From NCBI GenBank assembly GCA_031459765.1, contig JAVKHY010000001.1:221701-285700 (forward strand): a DNA stretch of 64,000 nt, written 5' to 3'. Below are positions 18,181-63,411 of the stretch, one piece after another. This stretch comes from Candidatus Kaftiobacterium secundum (GTDB lineage Bacteria > Sysuimicrobiota > Sysuimicrobiia > Sysuimicrobiales > Kaftiobacteriaceae). The notes beneath the pieces are model-generated. The model was not told the DNA's origin. It did not search any database and saw only the letters and a list, made by a program, of their open reading frames with translations. The translations under genes and the position numbers were made by a program. Position 1 is the first letter of the stretch. The number at the start of each line of letters is the position of its first letter.

Positions 18181-20517
18181 TCAGGCCCGGCGCTTCTCGA
18201 GATTGCCGAACCGGCTGTGCTCCTTGTGGAAGAACAGCTCCACCTGCCCGATGGGGCCGTTGCGGTGCTTGGCGATGATGATCTCGGCGATGTTCTTCTT
18301 CTCGGTCTCCGCATTGTAGTAGTCGTCGCGGTAGATGAACAGCACCAGGTCGGCCACCTGCTCCAGTTCCCCGCTCTCCCGGAGATGGGAGAGCATCGGC
18401 CGACGGCTGCCCGTCAGCTCCACCGCACGGCTGAGCTGGGAGATGGCCAGGAGCGGGATATCGAGCTCCTTGGCCAGCGACTTCAGCGAGCGGGCGATCT
18501 CCGAGATCTCCTGCGTGCGGTTCTCCGTGCGCTTGTAGGACTGGATCATCTGCAGGTAGTCCACCACGATCAGCCCCAGGCCGTGCTCCGCCTTGAGTTT
18601 GCGCGCCTTGGCCCGCATCTCGATGACGGAGATGTTGGCCGAATCGTCGATGAACACCGGCGCCTCGGAGAGGCGGCCCATGGCCCGGGCCAGTTTCGGC
18701 CAGTCCGAGTCGGCCAGGAATCCGGTGCGCAGCTTGCTGCCGTCCACCTCCGCCTCGGCGCAGAGGAAGCGCTGGACCAGCTGCTCCTTGGAGGTTTCCA
18801 GGCTGAAGATGGCGCAGGGGATCCGGTGGTGGATGGCGGCGTGCGCGGCGATGTTCAGGGCGAAGGTGGTGTTGTGGACGCAGACGTCGCCGGCAATGAA
18901 GTTGTGCGTCCCGGGGACCGTGAGATCGTACACCTGGAAGTCGCCGGTATAGTCTATGTCGGTGACGGCATCCCACAGGATGTCTGAGGCGGGCAGCAGA
19001 CGCCCCTGATCGTATCTGGCCCAGGTCCGCAGCCGTTCCCAGCCGAGCATCCCGATCTCCCGGAACAGCAGGCGCGCATGGTCGCCGGTCAGCGTCAACA
19101 CCGTCCCCTCGGTGGTGGCCGCGATCCCGAAACGCAGCAACAGATGGCGCACCTGCTGCGCCGTGCGCGCGCCGGGGAAGGTCGCGCGCACCCGCACCTC
19201 CGGCTCGGTCTCGACCACGCTCAGGCAGGCCAGCAGGCGGGAGAGAAAGAGCGCCAGTTTCTCCCGGGTCAGCGTGAAGACGATGGGGGGCACGGCCCGC
19301 CCGTCGCCCGCTCGAGCCAGGACGGGGTACCGCGCCAGCAGTCCGCCCACGACGTCGGGGACGGCGCCGCCCTGCACCGGAGCGATCACCTCCCCCGCCG
19401 GCGCGGCGCGCTCCCGCGGCCCGGGACGTGTCGCCGTGCGGATCGCCTCGCCGACGGCGACGGCGTCGGCGTAGTCGGCGGCCAGCGCCGGCACGGCCGG
19501 CATCGTCCCCGCGGTGAGGTAGGCCAGGAGCTTCACTTCGTACGCCGGGAGGTCGAGGGTCCCGAAGACCGGCAGGCGCGCGGGAACGGCGATCAGTGCG
19601 CCGACGCCGAGCTCGGCCAGGCGCCGCCAGCCCTGCGGGGTGAGGAAGGGATGGGACAGCGTGGTCTCGACCTCGCGGCCGGAAGCGGTGCGCACGCGGT
19701 AGACGGGTTTGATTCCGTCGTCGACGAATCGCGCCGGTTCCACGCGCCGCAGCCTGCCCTCCCCGTCCAGGCTCCACAGCACCGTCCGGGCGCGCCCGAC
19801 CACCTCCTGGATTGAGAACACCTCCCCGGTCTGCGCGTCCACGATCTCGGTGTCGTACTTCAGGCACTTCCCCATGGCTGGCCGCGCCGCGACGATGACG
19901 AGGTCCGCGGGCTGCAGACCGCTGGTCAGCTGGTCCAGGTCGGTGAACCCGGTGGGAACGCCCGTGACGGTGCCCTTGTCCTGGTAGCGCCGGTCGATCC
20001 GCTCGAAGCTCTCCTTGAGGATCTCGCGGATGGGCATGAACTCCTGGAGCATGCGGCGGTTGGCGATGCTGAAGACCAGCTTCTCCGCCTGGTCGACCAG
20101 GATCTCCACATCCTGCGCCGCCTCGTAGCCCATGTGGGCGATCTGGGTGCCGGCGCTGATCAGCTGCCGGAGCATGGACTTCTGAAGGACGATGCGCGCG
20201 TAGTATTCCACGTTGGCCGCGGTGGGTACCGTATTCAGCAGCGAGGTGACATAGGAGGCGCCGCCCACGTCATCCAGCTGGCCCTTGTCCCGCAACCGGT
20301 CGGTGACGGTGATCAGATCGACCGGCTCCCCGCGTTCGAACAGATCGGTGATCGCTTCAAAGATCCGGCGGTGCGCGTCGCGGTAGAAGTCCTCGGCGCG
20401 GAGGAGCTCCACGACCCGGGCGATCGCGTCCCGATCCAACAGCATCGACCCCAGCACGCCCTGCTCCGCGTCCAGGTTTTGCGGCGGCACTCTCTCCAGG
20501 GAAACGCTGAGCGACAC
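18181..20517 (-). CDS. dnaB: Replicative DNA helicase DnaB precursor containing a 332-aa intein (spliced product ~446 aa)
   Basis: PPQNLDAEQGVLG, ARPAMGK/TT, DYLQ, LSQLSR, LRESG, KHRNGP; SD GGAGGA. Confidence 0.97.
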   Translation of the reverse strand: MSLSVSLERVPPQNLDAEQGVLGSMLLDRDAIARVVELLRAEDFYRDAHRRIFEAITDLFERGEPVDLITVTDRLRDKGQLDDVGGASYVTSLLNTVPTAANVEYYARIVLQKSMLRQLISAGTQIAHMGYEAAQDVEILVDQAEKLVFSIANRRMLQEFMPIREILKESFERIDRRYQDKGTVTGVPTGFTDLDQLTSGLQPADLVIVAARPAMGKCLKYDTEIVDAQTGEVFSIQEVVGRARTVLWSLDGEGRLRRVEPARFVDDGIKPVYRVRTASGREVETTLSHPFLTPQGWRRLAELGVGALIAVPARLPVFGTLDLPAYEVKLLAYLTAGTMPAVPALAADYADAVAVGEAIRTATRPGPRERAAPAGEVIAPVQGGAVPDVVGGLLARYPVLARAGDGRAVPPIVFTLTREKLALFLSRLLACLSVVETEPEVRVRATFPGARTAQQVRHLLLRFGIAATTEGTVLTLTGDHARLLFREIGMLGWERLRTWARYDQGRLLPASDILWDAVTDIDYTGDFQVYDLTVPGTHNFIAGDVCVHNTTFALNIAAHAAIHHRIPCAIFSLETSKEQLVQRFLCAEAEVDGSKLRTGFLADSDWPKLARAMGRLSEAPVFIDDSANISVIEMRAKARKLKAEHGLGLIVVDYLQMIQSYKRTENRTQEISEIARSLKSLAKELDIPLLAISQLSRAVELTGSRRPMLSHLRESGELEQVADLVLFIYRDDYYNAETEKKNIAEIIIAKHRNGPIGQVELFFHKEHSRFGNLEKRRA
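18871..19866 (-). mobile_element. Intein in the DnaB Walker A motif, with degenerate LAGLIDADG endonuclease
   Basis: GK|CLKYDT...TLSHPF (block B TxxH)...VYDLTVPGTHNF..VHN|TTF; Cys1, His-Asn end, Thr+1. Confidence 0.95.
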
Positions 20518-20549
20518 GGACCCGTCCTCCTCGCCGGTGACCCTCTGCG

Positions 20550-20578
20550 AGCATAGCGAACATACGTTCGCCTGTCAA
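20550..20578 (-). promoter_or_regulatory. Sigma70-type dnaB promoter with LexA (SOS) box in the spacer
   Basis: TTGACA-17 nt-TATGCT on minus strand; CGAACATACGTTCG at 20557-20570. Confidence 0.85.
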
Positions 20579-20623: not shown

Positions 20624-20752
20624 TGTGGGTCACCTTGTGGAGGGCTGTGCACAACTTCGGAGGACGGTGGGGACATCTGCGGATCCCCTGGGGAGAGACG
20701 GCTGTTTTTGCGTGGACGGCCCGGAAGCGGGGTGTGGATAAGCTGGGGAGAC
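20624..20752. promoter_or_regulatory. Co-oriented DnaA-box-like array between lonC and dnaB
   Basis: Perfect TGTGGATAA at 20733, TGTGCACAA at 20646, plus degenerate TGNGGA units at 10-12 or 22 bp spacing. Confidence 0.6.
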
Positions 20753-20761
20753 GCTCCGCGT

Positions 20762-22699
20762 TCAGGCCGGCGTTCGGCTGTGGGCGCGGTACCTGGACGG
20801 GAAGAGGTGAGGGAGAGCATCCTCCACGGTGGCCACGAAGACCACCTCGATCCCGCGCACACCGGCCGGGACGTCGTTACGGTTTTCCTCGGGGAGGACG
20901 ACCTTGCGCATCCCGGCCTGCCGCGCGCCGTAGATCTTCTCCGGAATGCCGCCGACCTGTTTGACCTTCCCCTGGATCGAGATCTCCCCCGTCACGGCCA
21001 CGTCCTGGCGCACGGGCACCCTCTGGATGGCGCTGAGCATGGCCAGGACCACGGCCAGCCCGGCGCTGGGACCGTCGATCAGCCCCCCGCCGACGACGTT
21101 GACGTGGATGTCGTAATTGCCGACGTCGATGCCGGCAATCCTGCGGATGACCGAGGCCGCGTTGAACACCGAGTCCTTGGCCATCGTGCCCGCCGTCTCG
21201 TTGAACCGAATCGTTCCGCGCTGCCGCTTGCCGACCGGGAAGGCGACGGCCTCGATCTCGATCAGCGATCCCACGTACTGCGTCACACCCAGGGCGAAGA
21301 CCTTGCCGACCTCAGGCACGTCGGAGGCCTTGGTGGGCACGGTCGCCGTCAGCCGCCCGCTGCGCACCACCTCCAGCAGATCGCGGCGCGTGATCCGGGG
21401 ATGCCCCCGGCCACGACGGCGATACAGCGCCACGCCGTAGGCGTCGGCCAGGAGGTTGACGGCCTTGCGGCCCTCCACCGTGTACTCGCTGATGGTCTCC
21501 GGCACGCCCGCCTCCAGTTCCACCCCGAGGCGCCGCGCTGCCTGGCGCACAATCTTCTGCACGTCCTCCTGGGAGAGGGGATCGAAGAACACCTCGGCGC
21601 AGCGGGAGCGCAGGGTGGGGCTGATCTCCTCCGGCTCCTTGGTCGTGGCGCCGATGAGCAGGAAATCGGCCGGCGCCCCTTCGGTGAACAGGCGCTTGAT
21701 GTACGCCGGCAGTTGCGGGTTGGTGGGATCGTAGTAACTGGACTCGAAGAAGACGCGCTTGTCCTCCAGCACCTTCAGCAGTTTCGCCTGCAGCACGGCG
21801 TCCAGTTCGCCGATCTCGTCGATGAACAGGACCCCGCCGTGGGCCCGGGTCACCAGCCCGAGTTTCGGTTCGGGGATGCCCAGCTCGGCGAACTCCCGGC
21901 GGCTGCCCTGGTAGATGGGATCGTGCACCGAACCCAGCAGCGGATTGGTGGCTTCGCGGGCGTCCCAGCGCAGGGTGGAGGCGTCCACCTCGATGAAGGG
22001 CGCCTGCGGCCCGAAGGGGCTCTGGGGCAGGCGCTTGGCCTCCTCGAGCACCAGGCGCGCCACCGTCGTCTTGCCGACGCCGGGCGGCCCGTAGAGGATG
22101 ACGTGCTGCGGAATGGGCACGGCCAGTTTGGCCAGCAGCGCCCGGATGGCGCGCTCCTGGCCCACGACCTGGGAGAGTTTCCTCGGCCGCAGGGCTTCCA
22201 GCGCCGTGCGGGCCAGACGGACCTCCTCCAGCCGCTGCAACTCCTCGAGCTTGGCCCGTGTGCTCTCCGTCTCCGGCCCCAGCGCGTCCTGCATCACCTG
22301 CATCCGGATGGCGCGGAGGTACTCGTCCTGCCGCTCTTTCATCCGGTCCTGCACCCGGCGCTCGATCTCGTCCTCGATGGACTTGCGCGCCATGAGGTCG
22401 GCGATGCGTTCCTGCAGATCCTCCAGGATGGCCGGGATCTCCGCCTCGCGCGGCACGGCGTTGAGGTTCGGATCGTCGAAGACCAGGCGCTGCAGCGCCA
22501 GGACCCGGCGTCCCAGTTGCGGGCTGTTCAACATGGCGCGGGCGCCGACGCGTTCCGCGCGCTTGCTGAGGCGCTCCTGCCCGTACAGGCTGCTCAGGAC
22601 GCCGGCCAGGGCGGCCGCCTTGCGCCGCAGCACCTCCCGTTCGCTGACGCGCCCGGTGGGATTGATCGGCCGGATGGCCTTCGCCTGCCGGACCCTCAT
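20762..22699 (-). CDS. lonC: Lon-family ATP-dependent protease, LonC/LonB-like (Firmicutes sporulation-associated type)
   Basis: YGPPGVGKT, GGVLFIDEIGE, IDGPSAG catalytic Ser, GGIPEK catalytic Lys; position between rplI and dnaB. Confidence 0.85.
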   Translation of the reverse strand: MRVRQAKAIRPINPTGRVSEREVLRRKAAALAGVLSSLYGQERLSKRAERVGARAMLNSPQLGRRVLALQRLVFDDPNLNAVPREAEIPAILEDLQERIADLMARKSIEDEIERRVQDRMKERQDEYLRAIRMQVMQDALGPETESTRAKLEELQRLEEVRLARTALEALRPRKLSQVVGQERAIRALLAKLAVPIPQHVILYGPPGVGKTTVARLVLEEAKRLPQSPFGPQAPFIEVDASTLRWDAREATNPLLGSVHDPIYQGSRREFAELGIPEPKLGLVTRAHGGVLFIDEIGELDAVLQAKLLKVLEDKRVFFESSYYDPTNPQLPAYIKRLFTEGAPADFLLIGATTKEPEEISPTLRSRCAEVFFDPLSQEDVQKIVRQAARRLGVELEAGVPETISEYTVEGRKAVNLLADAYGVALYRRRGRGHPRITRRDLLEVVRSGRLTATVPTKASDVPEVGKVFALGVTQYVGSLIEIEAVAFPVGKRQRGTIRFNETAGTMAKDSVFNAASVIRRIAGIDVGNYDIHVNVVGGGLIDGPSAGLAVVLAMLSAIQRVPVRQDVAVTGEISIQGKVKQVGGIPEKIYGARQAGMRKVVLPEENRNDVPAGVRGIEVVFVATVEDALPHLFPSRYRAHSRTPA

Positions 22700-58202: not shown

Positions 58203-58371
58203 TGTGGAGAACCTGAGGATAATCGGGGGGGTTGCCCACAGATTTCGGGGCCGAACTGGGTGTGCCGCCAGCCCGGTGTGCCCGCACCGGCGGCCGGTCC
58301 GAGGCAATCCTCCGCCGTCGTTTCCTCCTGCCGTCAGGGTTGTCCACAGGGTTTTTCACATCTGTGGAAAA
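58203..58371. promoter_or_regulatory. DnaA-box cluster upstream of the dnaA operon
   Basis: TGTGGAGAA 58203, TTGCCCACA 58232, TTGTCCACA 58340, TTTTTCACA 58352, TGTGGAAAA 58363. Confidence 0.8.
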
Positions 58372-58631: not shown

Positions 58632-59429
58632 ATGCCGGACCTTGCACGGTTCTTGCATCCGCCCGATCGGGAAGCCGAGAGCGACGGGGGGCGCGGCGAG
58701 GCGGAAGTGCGTCTGGCGATTTACGACTCCCCGCTGGCCACGCCGCGGGTGATCACGCTGCGCGGAGAGGAGTTTCATCAGTTCGTGGGGGAACTCGCCG
58801 CGCGCACGTACCACCACTCCCGCGAGCGGGGTGGACGGATTCCCTACGTGGTGATCAGGGAAATTGTAGAGAACCTTATCCACGCCTACTTCGAAGGCGC
58901 CGTGATCAGTATTCTCGACGACGGGAACACCATCCGCATCTCGGACCAAGGGCCCGGAGTCGCCGATCCCGAGAAGGCCCTCCTCCCCGGATACACGACG
59001 GCCACCGCGGAGATGCGGCGCTACATCAAGGGCGTCGGATCCGGCCTTCCGGTGGCCAAAGAGCAGCTGGCGTTCCTCGGGGGAGCCCTCCGCATCGACT
59101 CCAACCTCTCCCGCGGGACCGTGGTCACGCTCTCCGTCGGACCGGCGTCGCCCCCCCAGACCGCCGCGGCGGTCACGTCTCCGCCGGACCCCGCCTCCAC
59201 CCGTCCCCCTGAACTGACGCCGCGTCAGAAAAAGGTTCTGCTGCTGATTGCGGAAATGGGCTCGGCCGGTCCATCCGCCGTGGCCAAGGAACTCGGCGTC
59301 AGCCAGAGTACGGCCTATCGCGAACTGCAGGCGCTCAGCGCGCTCCGCCTCATCCACAGCCGCCGTTCAGGCAAACGCACCCTGACCGAGGACGGGATCG
59401 CCGTCCTCGGAACCGTGTTCAAGTCCTAG
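58632..59429 (+). CDS. GHKL (HATPase_c-like) ATP-binding protein with C-terminal winged HTH, directly upstream of dnaA
   Basis: N-box EIVENLIHA, G1 DQGPG, GYTT, GVGSGL; C-terminal LTPRQ..GPSAVAKELGVSQSTAYRELQAL. Confidence 0.85.
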   Translation: MPDLARFLHPPDREAESDGGRGEAEVRLAIYDSPLATPRVITLRGEEFHQFVGELAARTYHHSRERGGRIPYVVIREIVENLIHAYFEGAVISILDDGNTIRISDQGPGVADPEKALLPGYTTATAEMRRYIKGVGSGLPVAKEQLAFLGGALRIDSNLSRGTVVTLSVGPASPPQTAAAVTSPPDPASTRPPELTPRQKKVLLLIAEMGSAGPSAVAKELGVSQSTAYRELQALSALRLIHSRRSGKRTLTEDGIAVLGTVFKS

Positions 59430-60785: not shown

Positions 60786-60845
60786 CCCCGTCCGCCCCCA
60801 GGCCCGGCGTGGGTCCGTGGGCGCCGGTGCACGTCTATCCTCAGG

Positions 60846-60955
60846 CTATACACACCCAATACACCCTGCTATCGTTACCGTGAAACTGTCTCGACCACAG
60901 TATCCACAGGTCTATTAGTAGTGGGATGAAGTTCATTGTAATAAATCTTGGAGGA
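60846..60955. other. oriC: Probable oriC unwinding region (DnaA boxes, trio-like run, AT-rich tract)
   Basis: CTATACACA 60846, GTATCCACA 60900 followed by GGT-CTA TTA GTA; AT-rich tract; plus strand changes from C-rich to G-rich here. Confidence 0.75.
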
Positions 60956-60960
60956 TAGTC

Positions 60961-62070
60961 ATGTGGGTTGTGTGTACACAGACCGCGTTGGCTAAAGGGG
61001 TGCATCTGGCCAGTCGCGCTATTTCCAGCCGCACCACCATGCCTATTCTGGGCTATATCCTCCTGGAGACGCTGAAGAACGGTGTGCGGCTTACGGCCAC
61101 CGATCTGGAGCTGGCCGTACAGGTGGATATCGACGCCGAGGTGAAACGCGGCGGGCAGGTGACGCTCCCGGCGAAGATTCTGGCTGAGATCGTGGGAAAT
61201 CTCCCGGAAGCGACCGTGGAGCTGAAGCGGGAGGAAGGGTCTCACCAGGTAGAGATCACTTGTGAGGCCAGCGCCTTTGAAATTCTGGGGCTGCCCCCGG
61301 ACGATTTCCCGGCGCTGCCGAAGGGTGAGGGGGCGGAAGTCGGGGCGATCGACGCCGATCTGTTGCGCAAGATGGTGAGTCAGACGATTTTCGCCGTCTC
61401 GGCCGACGAGACGCGGCCTTTTCTCACAGGTGTGTACGTCACCATGGAGGGAGCCGAGGTGCGCTGCGTGGCTACGGACGGTGGGCGTCTGGCCCTGCGC
61501 AAGGCCGCTCTGGATTCTCCGGCCAAGCAGAAGCTGGGCGCCATCGTGCCGGCCAAGGCCATGCAGGAGCTGATGCGCGCCCTGGCCGGTGCCGCAGGAG
61601 AGGTTCGGGTGAGCATGGTGGACAACCAGCTGCTGTTTGCCGTACCGGGGTTGCGGATCTACTCCCGGTTGATTGGCGGCCAGTTTCCGAACTACCAGCA
61701 GGTGATTCCCCAGGAGTTCAAGCAGCGCATCCGGGTGCCCACGGAACGGCTGCTCCGCGCCGTCCGGCGGGTAGCGATTACCGCCCGGGACTCGGCCAAC
61801 GTGGTGCGGATTGCGGCCAGGGGGAACCGTCTGGTCATCACCTCCAATACGCCTGAGGTGGGCAAGGCCCGCGAAGAGGTGGAGGTGGCCAGCGAGGGCG
61901 ACACCGTGGAGGCGGCCTTTAACGCGCGGTACCTGATGGATTGTCTCAACACGATTGACGCCGACGAGCTCTATTTCGACCTCACCGGACAACTCAGTCC
62001 GGGTACCCTCCGGCCTACCGGGCACACCGATTACGTCTATGTTCTGGCGCCTGTCCGCGTCTACGGGTGA
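60961..62070 (+). CDS. dnaN: DNA polymerase III beta clamp
   Basis: ATDLE, RPFLTG, ATDG.RL, FPNYQQVIP, AFNARYL. Confidence 0.97.
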   Translation: MWVVCTQTALAKGVHLASRAISSRTTMPILGYILLETLKNGVRLTATDLELAVQVDIDAEVKRGGQVTLPAKILAEIVGNLPEATVELKREEGSHQVEITCEASAFEILGLPPDDFPALPKGEGAEVGAIDADLLRKMVSQTIFAVSADETRPFLTGVYVTMEGAEVRCVATDGGRLALRKAALDSPAKQKLGAIVPAKAMQELMRALAGAAGEVRVSMVDNQLLFAVPGLRIYSRLIGGQFPNYQQVIPQEFKQRIRVPTERLLRAVRRVAITARDSANVVRIAARGNRLVITSNTPEVGKAREEVEVASEGDTVEAAFNARYLMDCLNTIDADELYFDLTGQLSPGTLRPTGHTDYVYVLAPVRVYG

Positions 62071-62296
62071 GCGCGGAAAGGTCCGGCCGGTCGTCATCCG
62101 TTCCCCGACGATCGGCCTGGGCGCGCTGCTGAAGCTGGCGCAGCTGGCCCCTACGGGCGGGGCGGCGAAACGGATGATTCAGGGCGGGGGCGTCGCCGTC
62201 AACGGCGTCGTGGAACGTCGCCGGGGCCGCCAGGTCCGTCCGGGGGACGTCGTGAACGCCGGCGGGACGATCCTCAGGGTGGAACGCGGGGCGTGA
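62067..62296 (+). CDS. yaaA: S4-domain RNA-binding protein YaaA-like; no clean in-frame start (possible frameshift)
   Basis: IGLGALLKL...TGGAAK..I..G.V.VNG..E.RRGR; the GTG overlapping the dnaN stop is out of frame by one base. Confidence 0.7.
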
Positions 62297-63411
62297 CGAT
62301 GCGCCTCACGCACCTCCGTCTCGTGCAGTTCCGCAACCACCGGCATACGGACGTCGCGCCGGGACCGGGCCTCACACTCTTTGTGGGGGGCAATGCGCAG
62401 GGCAAGTCCGCGCTGCTCGAAGCCGTCCAGGTGGCGGCCACCGGGCGGTCGTTCCGGGCGCGTCAGGACCTGGAAATGATCGCCTTCGGCGGGGAGTGGG
62501 CCCGGGTGCGGGCGGGGGTCGAACGCGGCGGTCGGCTCGAGGAGATCGACATCGTGCTGCGCCGCGAAGACGGCGCCGGGGCGCCGCGCGTCACGCGTGA
62601 GCTACGTATCAACGGGGTGTCCGTACGCCGCGGGGAACTCTTCGGTCACCTGCGATGCGTGCTGGCCGCCCCGGACGACGCCGAGGTGGTCACCGGCCCG
62701 CCGCACCGCCGCCGGCAGGTGCTGGATCAACTCCTCGCCCAGATCAGTCCCGCCTATTATTACGTCGCCCTGCGCTACGGGCGGGTCCTCGCCCAGCGCA
62801 ACCGGCTGTTGCGCCTGCGGGGCCGGGGGCTGGAGGTGTGGGACGAGCAACTGGCCGCGCTGGGAGCGCGGCTCACGGTCCGCAGGCGCCAGTTGGTCGA
62901 CAGGCTGGCCCGCGTCGCGGCCCCGGTCTATGCGACGCTGTGCCAGGGACGGGAGCGGCTGGTTCTGGAGTACCGTCCGTCGCTGCGCGGTGAGGCGGAG
63001 GCGGCGTTGGTCGAGTGGGCGCGCGAGGCGTTGCTGCGTCGTCGCGCCGAGGAAGCGGCCGGAGGGGCCACCCTGGTCGGCCCCCATCGGGACGACCTGG
63101 CCCTGCTCCTGGACGGCCGCGACCTGCGCGCCTACGGATCACGCGGTCAGCAGTTGACCGCCATGTTGGCCCTGCGCCTTGCCGAACGATCGGTGCTGCT
63201 GGAGGAGACCGGCGAGGAACCCGTGCTCCTGCTGGACGACGTGTTCCTCACGCTCGATGCGTCCCGGCAGGCCTACCTGCTGGAGAGTGTGCGCGGAGTG
63301 CAGACGCTGATGACGGTCACCACCGCGCCGCAGGTCGACCTCCCGCCCGGCGCGCTGGTCTACCGGATTCGGGACGGGGCGGTGGAAGGCGAGCATGCTC
63401 ACCTCCCTTAG
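62293..63411 (+). CDS. recF: DNA replication/repair protein RecF
   Basis: QFRN, GGNAQGKS, GPHRDDL, GSRGQQ, LLLDDV. Confidence 0.95.
   Translation: MTMRLTHLRLVQFRNHRHTDVAPGPGLTLFVGGNAQGKSALLEAVQVAATGRSFRARQDLEMIAFGGEWARVRAGVERGGRLEEIDIVLRREDGAGAPRVTRELRINGVSVRRGELFGHLRCVLAAPDDAEVVTGPPHRRRQVLDQLLAQISPAYYYVALRYGRVLAQRNRLLRLRGRGLEVWDEQLAALGARLTVRRRQLVDRLARVAAPVYATLCQGRERLVLEYRPSLRGEAEAALVEWAREALLRRRAEEAAGGATLVGPHRDDLALLLDGRDLRAYGSRGQQLTAMLALRLAERSVLLEETGEEPVLLLDDVFLTLDASRQAYLLESVRGVQTLMTVTTAPQVDLPPGALVYRIRDGAVEGEHAHLP

Follow-up and report, generated by a model that had tools for sequence, protein, structure and literature searches.

The locus lies in a 64-kb window (the whole stretch of DNA that was analysed, about 69% GC), in which DUF2232, rplI, lonC and dnaB follow one another on the minus strand. 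The replicative helicase gene dnaB has lonC as its co-directional upstream neighbour, and the gap between the two genes is about 65% GC. A LonC protein identical to that encoded here is present in the MAG GCA_031459255.1, and the nearest named locus is that of Candidatus Thermofontivivens primus, a member of Candidatus Sysuimicrobiota, the phylum once known as CSP1-3 (PMC11604079). No intrinsic terminator was predicted after lonC in the window. In the region upstream of dnaB one promoter-like site was found against 0.1 expected, a near-consensus promoter with a 17-nt spacer (Table 1), and equivalent dnaB promoters were found in 24 of 27 relatives. The spacer holds a Cheo-type LexA box, a CGAAC-N4-GTTCG palindrome being accepted as such where it overlaps the core promoter or the 5′ UTR, and a Shine-Dalgarno sequence was read from the sequence ahead of the dnaB GTG start.

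The gap is filled by co-oriented DnaA-box-like 9-mers, and Table 1 gives their positions together with those of the other features. All nine had been listed in an earlier sequence-only reading of the window, and their coordinates, sequences and common orientation proved to be as given there. They comprise all plus-strand sites with at most 3 mismatches to TGTGGATAA within 20624-20752, plus the weaker site at 20711; one is perfect, two have 2 mismatches, five have 3 and the one at 20711 has 4. Read along the dnaB strand, the lonC-dnaB gap consists of twelve consecutive 11-bp slots of which nine are boxed, in the order Boxes 1 and 2, an empty slot, Box 3, an empty slot, Boxes 4, 5 and 6, an empty slot, and Boxes 7, 8 and 9. 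The unit is TTATCC(A/C)CA plus a GG spacer, and every box is oriented as dnaB. Box 1 begins 10 bp past the lonC stop codon, and 46 bp separate the end of Box 9 from the -35 hexamer of the dnaB promoter.

Table 1. Positions of the DnaA boxes, the dnaB promoter region, genes and origin features in the window, and of features in loci of other genomes (the latter numbered within the respective locus).
Feature	Position	Strand	Sequence or assignment	Remark
Box 1	20744..20752	-	GTCTCCCCA, + strand TGGGGAGAC; 3 mismatches	weak partner 11 bp upstream of strong box
Box 2	20733..20741	-	TTATCCACA, + strand TGTGGATAA; 0 mismatches	distal anchor
Box 3	20711..20719	-	CCGTCCACG, + strand CGTGGACGG; 4 mismatches	on lattice, weak, uncertain
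Box 4	20689..20697	-	CTCTCCCCA, + strand TGGGGAGAG; 3 mismatches	
Box 5	20678..20686	-	GGATCCGCA, + strand TGCGGATCC; 3 mismatches	
Box 6	20668..20676	-	ATGTCCCCA, + strand TGGGGACAT; 3 mismatches	
Box 7	20646..20654	-	TTGTGCACA, + strand TGTGCACAA; 2 mismatches	
Box 8	20636..20644	-	CCCTCCACA, + strand TGTGGAGGG; 3 mismatches	first half of proximal double box
Box 9	20624..20632	-	TGACCCACA, + strand TGTGGGTCA; 2 mismatches	proximal anchor
dnaB promoter	20550..20578	-	TTGACA 20578-20573, 17-nt spacer, TATGCT 20555-20550	near-consensus
LexA (Cheo-type) box	20557..20570		CGAACGTATGTTCG	within spacer of dnaB promoter
Shine-Dalgarno	20526..20532	-	GAGGAGG	8 nt ahead of dnaB GTG start
dnaB	18181..20517	-	replicative helicase, 778 aa	intein in P-loop
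lonC	20762..22699	-	TIGR02903, 926 bits	co-directional upstream neighbour of dnaB
dnaA	59439-60785		TIGR00362, 575 bits	canonical four-domain DnaA
dnaN	60961-62070			
recF	62293-63411			
oriC DnaA-box cluster	58203-58371			rpmH side
oriC DnaA-box cluster	60835-60908			
Probable oriC unwinding site	60900-60950		GTATCCACAgg, then TCTATTAGTAGTGGGATGAAG	dnaA-dnaN gap
HATPase_c gene	58632-59429	+	265 aa	between rpmH-side cluster and dnaA
Methyltransferase gene	L107 1748-2752	-		between rplI and dnaB
Ktedonobacteria box cluster	L047 5712-5876			divergent intergenic region
Ktedonobacteria box cluster	L046 5543-5684			
Ktedonobacteria box cluster	L048 5323-5466			
Ktedonobacteria box cluster	L053 5571-5714			
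Ktedonobacteria box cluster	L069 5675-5827			

Boxes 1 and 2 form a distal double box. The TCCmCA of Box 1 is kept in alignment A2, in which the proximal double box, CCACAAGG-TGACCCACAGG, is an invariant block. Box 2 scores 17.1 bits with a matrix trained on the oriC boxes and is almost invariant among relatives; its TTATCCACA, noticed earlier as a perfect match, is the only perfect box in the entire window. The array had been proposed to be seeded by a single strong box. This picture has to be refined: there are two conserved double-box anchors, and the weak sites lie promoter-ward of the strongest box, on its CACA side. Nor is the genome G-rich, as had been cautioned: it is the plus strand of the array that is locally 43% G, being the complement of C-rich boxes.

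Enrichment and phasing of the boxes are real. The stretch 20624-20752 holds 8 co-oriented 9-mers with at most 3 mismatches to TGTGGATAA, where 0.58 would be expected from the window-wide rate per 129 nt, and in sliding windows over both strands no other 129-nt stretch of the 64 kb holds as many, the runner-up being one with 5 sites in the dnaA-dnaN gap. That the array is a chance product of local base composition could be argued from the degeneracy of most units and from the 43% G of the strand. However, dinucleotide shuffles of the array sequence itself, in which this G content was kept, averaged 1.45 sites and never had more than 6, so that none of 5000 reached 8. A matrix built solely from the 10 oriC boxes of this window found 6 matches in the array, where shuffles averaged 1.23 (P = 0.0003); the array was again the top stretch. 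The site starts follow a 10.9-bp period (Rayleigh R = 0.965, P~0.001) relative to random non-overlapping placement, the scan over periods of 9-13 bp being allowed for. Together with the presence of the array at all 31 clade loci described below, these sliding windows, local shuffles, matrix scans and the periodicity test leave chance with a negligible probability, and it was rejected. The phased, co-oriented array thus withstood the comparisons with a shuffled background and with the origin that had been proposed for it. Further matrix matches in the window at about 38.4-39.0 kb and at 42.0 kb are without a box of at most 2 mismatches and were dismissed as noise rather than counted as other DnaA arrays.

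The origin of this genome lies at the other end of the window. Two DnaA-box clusters and the dnaA, dnaN and recF genes are found there, the cumulative GC skew turns at a minimum at about 60-61 kb, and the array lies 37.5-40 kb from the box clusters, in line with the roughly 38 kb first estimated. Within the dnaA-dnaN gap a box is followed by TCTATTAGTAGTGGGATGAAG, which consists of TAG trio-like repeats, and by an AT-rich stretch, and this is the probable unwinding site of oriC. The oriC boxes and the array have a common core, aGG..GG flanks and pairs spaced at 11-12 bp.

DnaA very likely binds the array, as judged from sequence, because the motif pooled from 176 sites at 27 loci, which reads T, T, A, T, C, C, A/C, C, A, matches the DnaA box at each of its nine positions, because the oriC boxes are alike and because a canonical DnaA is encoded. 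The same conclusion draws on precedents in other bacteria. In E. coli, ChIP-seq showed a preference of DnaA for co-oriented box pairs 2 or 3 bp apart (PMC11317965), and it is on direct repeats separated by 2 bp that ATP-DnaA assembles into head-to-tail oligomers, in dependence on its arginine finger (PMC5742627, PMC10316083). The 11-bp pitch had been taken as typical of ATP-DnaA, and these three reports bear this out. With its one-way direct repeats and 2-bp gaps, the array would have the geometry for head-to-tail oligomerisation.

Recognition of the repeats by a protein other than DnaA, or their serving to encode a structured RNA, is very improbable. In favour of such a reading, most units match the 3′ half TCC(A/C)CA alone, and the variant with C at position 7 (TCCCCA) is frequent. 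Yet the pooled motif includes the TTAT half, and the motif and its flanks are common to the array and the oriC boxes. For an RNA, the folding z-scores were +1.61 in sense and -0.20 in antisense, and an Rfam search of the array gave no match at the gathering thresholds nor at E≤1; on these two results a structured RNA or known RNA family was rejected. The conserved unit, moreover, consists of 9-mers on an 11-bp lattice with indels of whole helical turns, not of paired columns.

Conservation was followed in 160 loci from DnaB-based scans, of which 27 non-redundant clade loci were used for box counts. Sense-oriented DnaA-like boxes precede dnaB in all 31 loci with a DnaB N-extein of at least 70% identity (Sysuimicrobiota/CSP1-3), at about -90 to -350 relative to the dnaB start, and the LexA box is kept in 29 of these 31. 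The pairing of the array with a LexA-controlled dnaB promoter, and its conservation in relatives, were thereby confirmed. The approximately 110 loci at or below 63% DnaB identity, Ktedonobacteria excepted, are without the DnaA array, and there the LexA box is missing as well, with the exception of one LexA-like match. Some members of the clade (L087-L094, L096, L099-L102 and L111) have CGAACGGAGGTTCG as their LexA palindrome, around -16 to -21 relative to the dnaB start; it contains the Shine-Dalgarno sequence GGAGG and lies in the 5′ UTR, not in the promoter spacer.

With the expected numbers drawn from the background of each locus itself, boxes of at most 2 mismatches occur 77 times in sense and once in antisense orientation in the 27 non-redundant loci (4.4 expected per strand), and those of at most 1 mismatch 28 times in sense and never in antisense (0.2 expected). 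Motif-free 6-mer enrichment in the 27 relatives yielded only tiles of AGG-TTATCC(A/C)CA-(A/G)GG, and these were strand-specific. Neighbouring boxes are spaced by 11 bp (31 cases), 12 bp (13), 21-23 bp (38) or 32-34 bp (21), with almost none between. By histogram count 115 of 139 spacings fall within 1 bp of a multiple of 11, against 27% expected, although the loci are kin, so that these events are not independent; the boxes and the number of slots vary among the loci. The alignment of the lonC-bearing subclade has two invariant blocks, the distal TCCmCAGG-TTATCCACAG and the proximal CCCACAAGG-TrAyCCmCAGG. The distances from anchor to anchor are 109, 108, 54, 56, 56 and 77 bp, corresponding to about 10, 10, 5, 5, 5 and 7 turns, so that the arrays vary in length by whole turns of the helix.

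The array lies immediately ahead of dnaB, in fixed orientation, under four upstream contexts, namely lonC, rplI, a STAS gene (L105) and a divergent methyltransferase (L107), and by calculation it begins 5-40 bp past the upstream stop codon. In L107, from a soil-metagenome relative, rplI and dnaB are separated by the insertion of the methyltransferase gene, which lies on the opposite strand. This locus keeps the DnaA array beside dnaB, and the notion that the upstream gene is always co-directional was discarded for it. A fixed helical phase between the array and the -35 hexamer was sought across the loci without success; each locus has one constant phase, which is not that of the others, and the distance from the proximal box to the -35 hexamer ranges from about 18 to 124 bp.

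In the Ktedonobacteria (Chloroflexota), too, DnaA boxes are densely clustered upstream of dnaB (Table 1). The cluster holds 4-6 near-perfect TGTGGATAA boxes, 10-12 or 21 bp apart and antisense to dnaB, and overlapping ATATCCACATATCCACA in sense orientation. These clusters are either the oriC of these bacteria or an independent dnaB-linked array.

DnaA boxes, head-to-tail arrays at 11 bp, clusters outside oriC, replication genes regulated by DnaA and LexA boxes are each established. The low-affinity arrays in the left and right DnaA-oligomerisation regions of E. coli oriC resemble the dnaB array in their co-oriented 9-mers with a 2-bp gap, giving the 11-bp pitch, and in their mixture of strong and weak boxes, and head-to-tail ATP-DnaA oligomers would be expected in both (PMC5742627, PMC10316083). 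Unlike them, the dnaB array lies outside the origin and is without an unwinding element, is single instead of two facing arrays, has up to 12 slots, and commonly has empty slots (steps of 22 and 33 bp). The R4 array of E. coli oriC, furthermore, extends from the TTAT side of its strong box, whereas the weak sites here lie on the opposite, CACA side of the strongest box.

The B. subtilis clusters (yydA-yycS, ywcI-vpr, sda, ywlC and others) likewise occupy intergenic promoter regions near oriC, and can both regulate the downstream gene and restrain initiation (PMC3245932). In contrast to the present array, no cluster is reported upstream of the B. subtilis replicative helicase gene dnaC, and neither a strict one-way orientation nor an 11-bp lattice is described for those clusters, among which the authors found no discriminating structural feature (PMC3245932). 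The E. coli uvrB promoter with DARS1, and recN, are LexA-repressed and have DnaA boxes a short way upstream, a co-oriented double box among them (PMC8203912, PMC11317965), and DnaA and LexA jointly regulate both genes (PMC8203912). The dnaB array differs from DARS1/uvrB in the absence of an inverted box, in its 8-10 sites and in the gene regulated. Predicted DnaA boxes also lie upstream of the helicase gene in Caulobacter crescentus, the DnaA regulon of which includes dnaB, dnaQ and nrd, and there the expression of dnaB is DnaA-dependent (Hottes 2005, as cited in PMC8203912); in this unrelated lineage, however, the boxes are single or few, and no phased array or LexA box is reported. The E. 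coli datA locus is alike in being a high-capacity DnaA-binding locus outside oriC with head-to-tail ATP-DnaA oligomers (PMC5742627), binding at the dnaB array being predicted. The combination of a strictly one-way, origin-style array of up to 12 slots with a helicase promoter, a LexA box and phylum-wide conservation with indels of whole turns was not found described in the literature consulted for comparison.

The array is best explained as a platform for head-to-tail DnaA oligomers that would regulate the dnaB promoter and may also soak up DnaA, a reading to which we give about an even chance. DnaA would first take the two double-box anchors, after which ATP-DnaA would fill the weaker sites on the same face head-to-tail, as it does on the direct-repeat arrays of E. 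coli oriC. The resulting complex would stop about 46 bp short of the -35 hexamer and modulate initiation at the dnaB promoter, while LexA would separately repress this promoter through the box in its spacer. Helicase expression would then read two signals, the DnaA-ATP level and DNA damage, and the array probably ties SOS-controlled, that is LexA-controlled, helicase expression to the status of the initiator. Either half of this scheme has a precedent, in the Caulobacter dnaB boxes and in the joint action of DnaA and LexA at E. coli uvrB and recN (PMC8203912). An array of this size so near oriC would also hold several DnaA molecules.

As for the sign of the proposed effect of DnaA on dnaB, we lean to a tuning that is positive or biphasic, since the array has its core upstream of the promoter. 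The variable lattice phase and the variable distance to the -35 hexamer argue against a rigid face-of-helix contact with RNA polymerase, and a promoter so near to consensus does not need an activator, which counts against a rigid activator geometry. Many slots, moreover, are boxes with 3 mismatches and C at position 7 (TCCCCA), which also counts against the platform. To our knowledge, known DnaA-regulated promoters use fewer than eight to ten sites, and in this respect a titration site fits equally well.

A DnaA sink or inactivation site like the B. subtilis clusters or E. coli datA, which soon after its own duplication would bind up or inactivate DnaA and thereby restrain re-initiation, and for which the adjacency to dnaB would be incidental or secondary, is the main rival; we hold it possible, and it and a regulation of dnaB are not mutually exclusive. 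The 8-10 sites, which are more than in either oriC sub-cluster of the window, the location in this genome about 38-40 kb from oriC and the variation of phase and distance to the promoter among the loci would all suit a sink, and the B. subtilis box clusters likewise lie near oriC, restrain initiation and in many cases serve as promoter regions too (PMC3245932). On the other hand, the strict orientation and the position directly upstream of dnaB were kept through four gene contexts, which a pure sink need not do. datA, moreover, needs an IHF site between specific boxes for promoting hydrolysis of DnaA-bound ATP (PMC5742627), whereas the IHF site WATCAANNNNTTR is without a match in the window and at the dnaB array, although this is the E. 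coli consensus, which may not apply, and only 0.04 matches are expected at this GC content.

Strict orientation relative to transcription would also be accounted for if the array were an orientation-dependent DnaA roadblock or insulator, keeping RNA polymerase from reading through from strongly expressed rplI(-lonC) into dnaB, which we consider improbable. DnaA/box complexes do block RNA polymerase (Schaefer and Messer 1988/1989, as cited in PMC10950094). The array begins just past the upstream stop codon, and in the window as in nearly all relatives the interval from the upstream gene to dnaB has no predicted intrinsic terminator. Such an orientation-dependent roadblock by DnaA has reportedly been seen at the E. 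coli asnC terminator. Against it, the array of L107 has the same orientation even though its neighbour is divergent, and GC-rich genomes are frequently without canonical terminators in any case. A second origin or helicase-loading site, the latter having been suggested in the sequence-only reading, is still harder to sustain and is highly improbable. The array does have more phased boxes than the oriC sub-clusters and adjoins the helicase gene, but beside it there is no AT-rich unwinding element, no TAG trio and no GC-skew switch in its gap of about 65% GC, and it is the dnaA-dnaN gap that holds a box, TAG trio-like repeats and an AT-rich stretch instead. The suggestion of a DARS-like locus was also dropped. 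In the DARS core of three boxes, box I faces the other way from II and III, the head-to-head contact releasing ADP (PMC5742627), but no antisense box of at most 2 mismatches is present in the array of the window, and there is no inverted box, the clade as a whole having a single antisense box.

A bolder version of the regulatory platform, which we regard as rather unlikely, would make the array an initiator-to-helicase feedback module. It would be a filament track of up to 12 slots outside any origin that gauges DnaA-ATP and sets the helicase supply, an IHF-independent counterpart of datA fixed through the whole history of the Sysuimicrobiota. Something similar may then have arisen independently in the Ktedonobacteria, where dnaB is likewise preceded by phased DnaA boxes.

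DnaA is known as a transcription factor that is buffered by box clusters outside oriC, and the features that distinguish regulatory sites from titration sites and from sites of origin-type oligomers are at issue (PMC3245932). Here an origin-style phased array was kept at a promoter for the depth of a phylum, and whole-turn spacing was held while the number of slots changed. The array would offer a clean natural substrate for the questions of how oligomers of ATP-DnaA assemble on double-stranded DNA at a distance from any unwinding element, how DnaA oligomers affect a neighbouring promoter, and whether the supply of helicase is linked not only to the SOS response but also to the status of the initiator. 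With the proposed platform there is also a first concrete prediction on how replication is controlled in this phylum, which is uncultured and abundant in soil and hot springs.

Two genes of the window have features of their own. The DnaB protein carries an intein of about 314 aa, at codons 218-531, in its P-loop (GK|CLKYD...VHN|TTF), and the DnaB matches of the nearest genome relatives (L005-L007) are uninterrupted by an intein. At the origin, the gene between the rpmH-side box cluster and dnaA encodes a SpoIIAB-like HATPase_c domain together with a winged helix-turn-helix; it ends 10 nt ahead of the dnaA ATG and is an unusual occupant of the oriC-dnaA interval.
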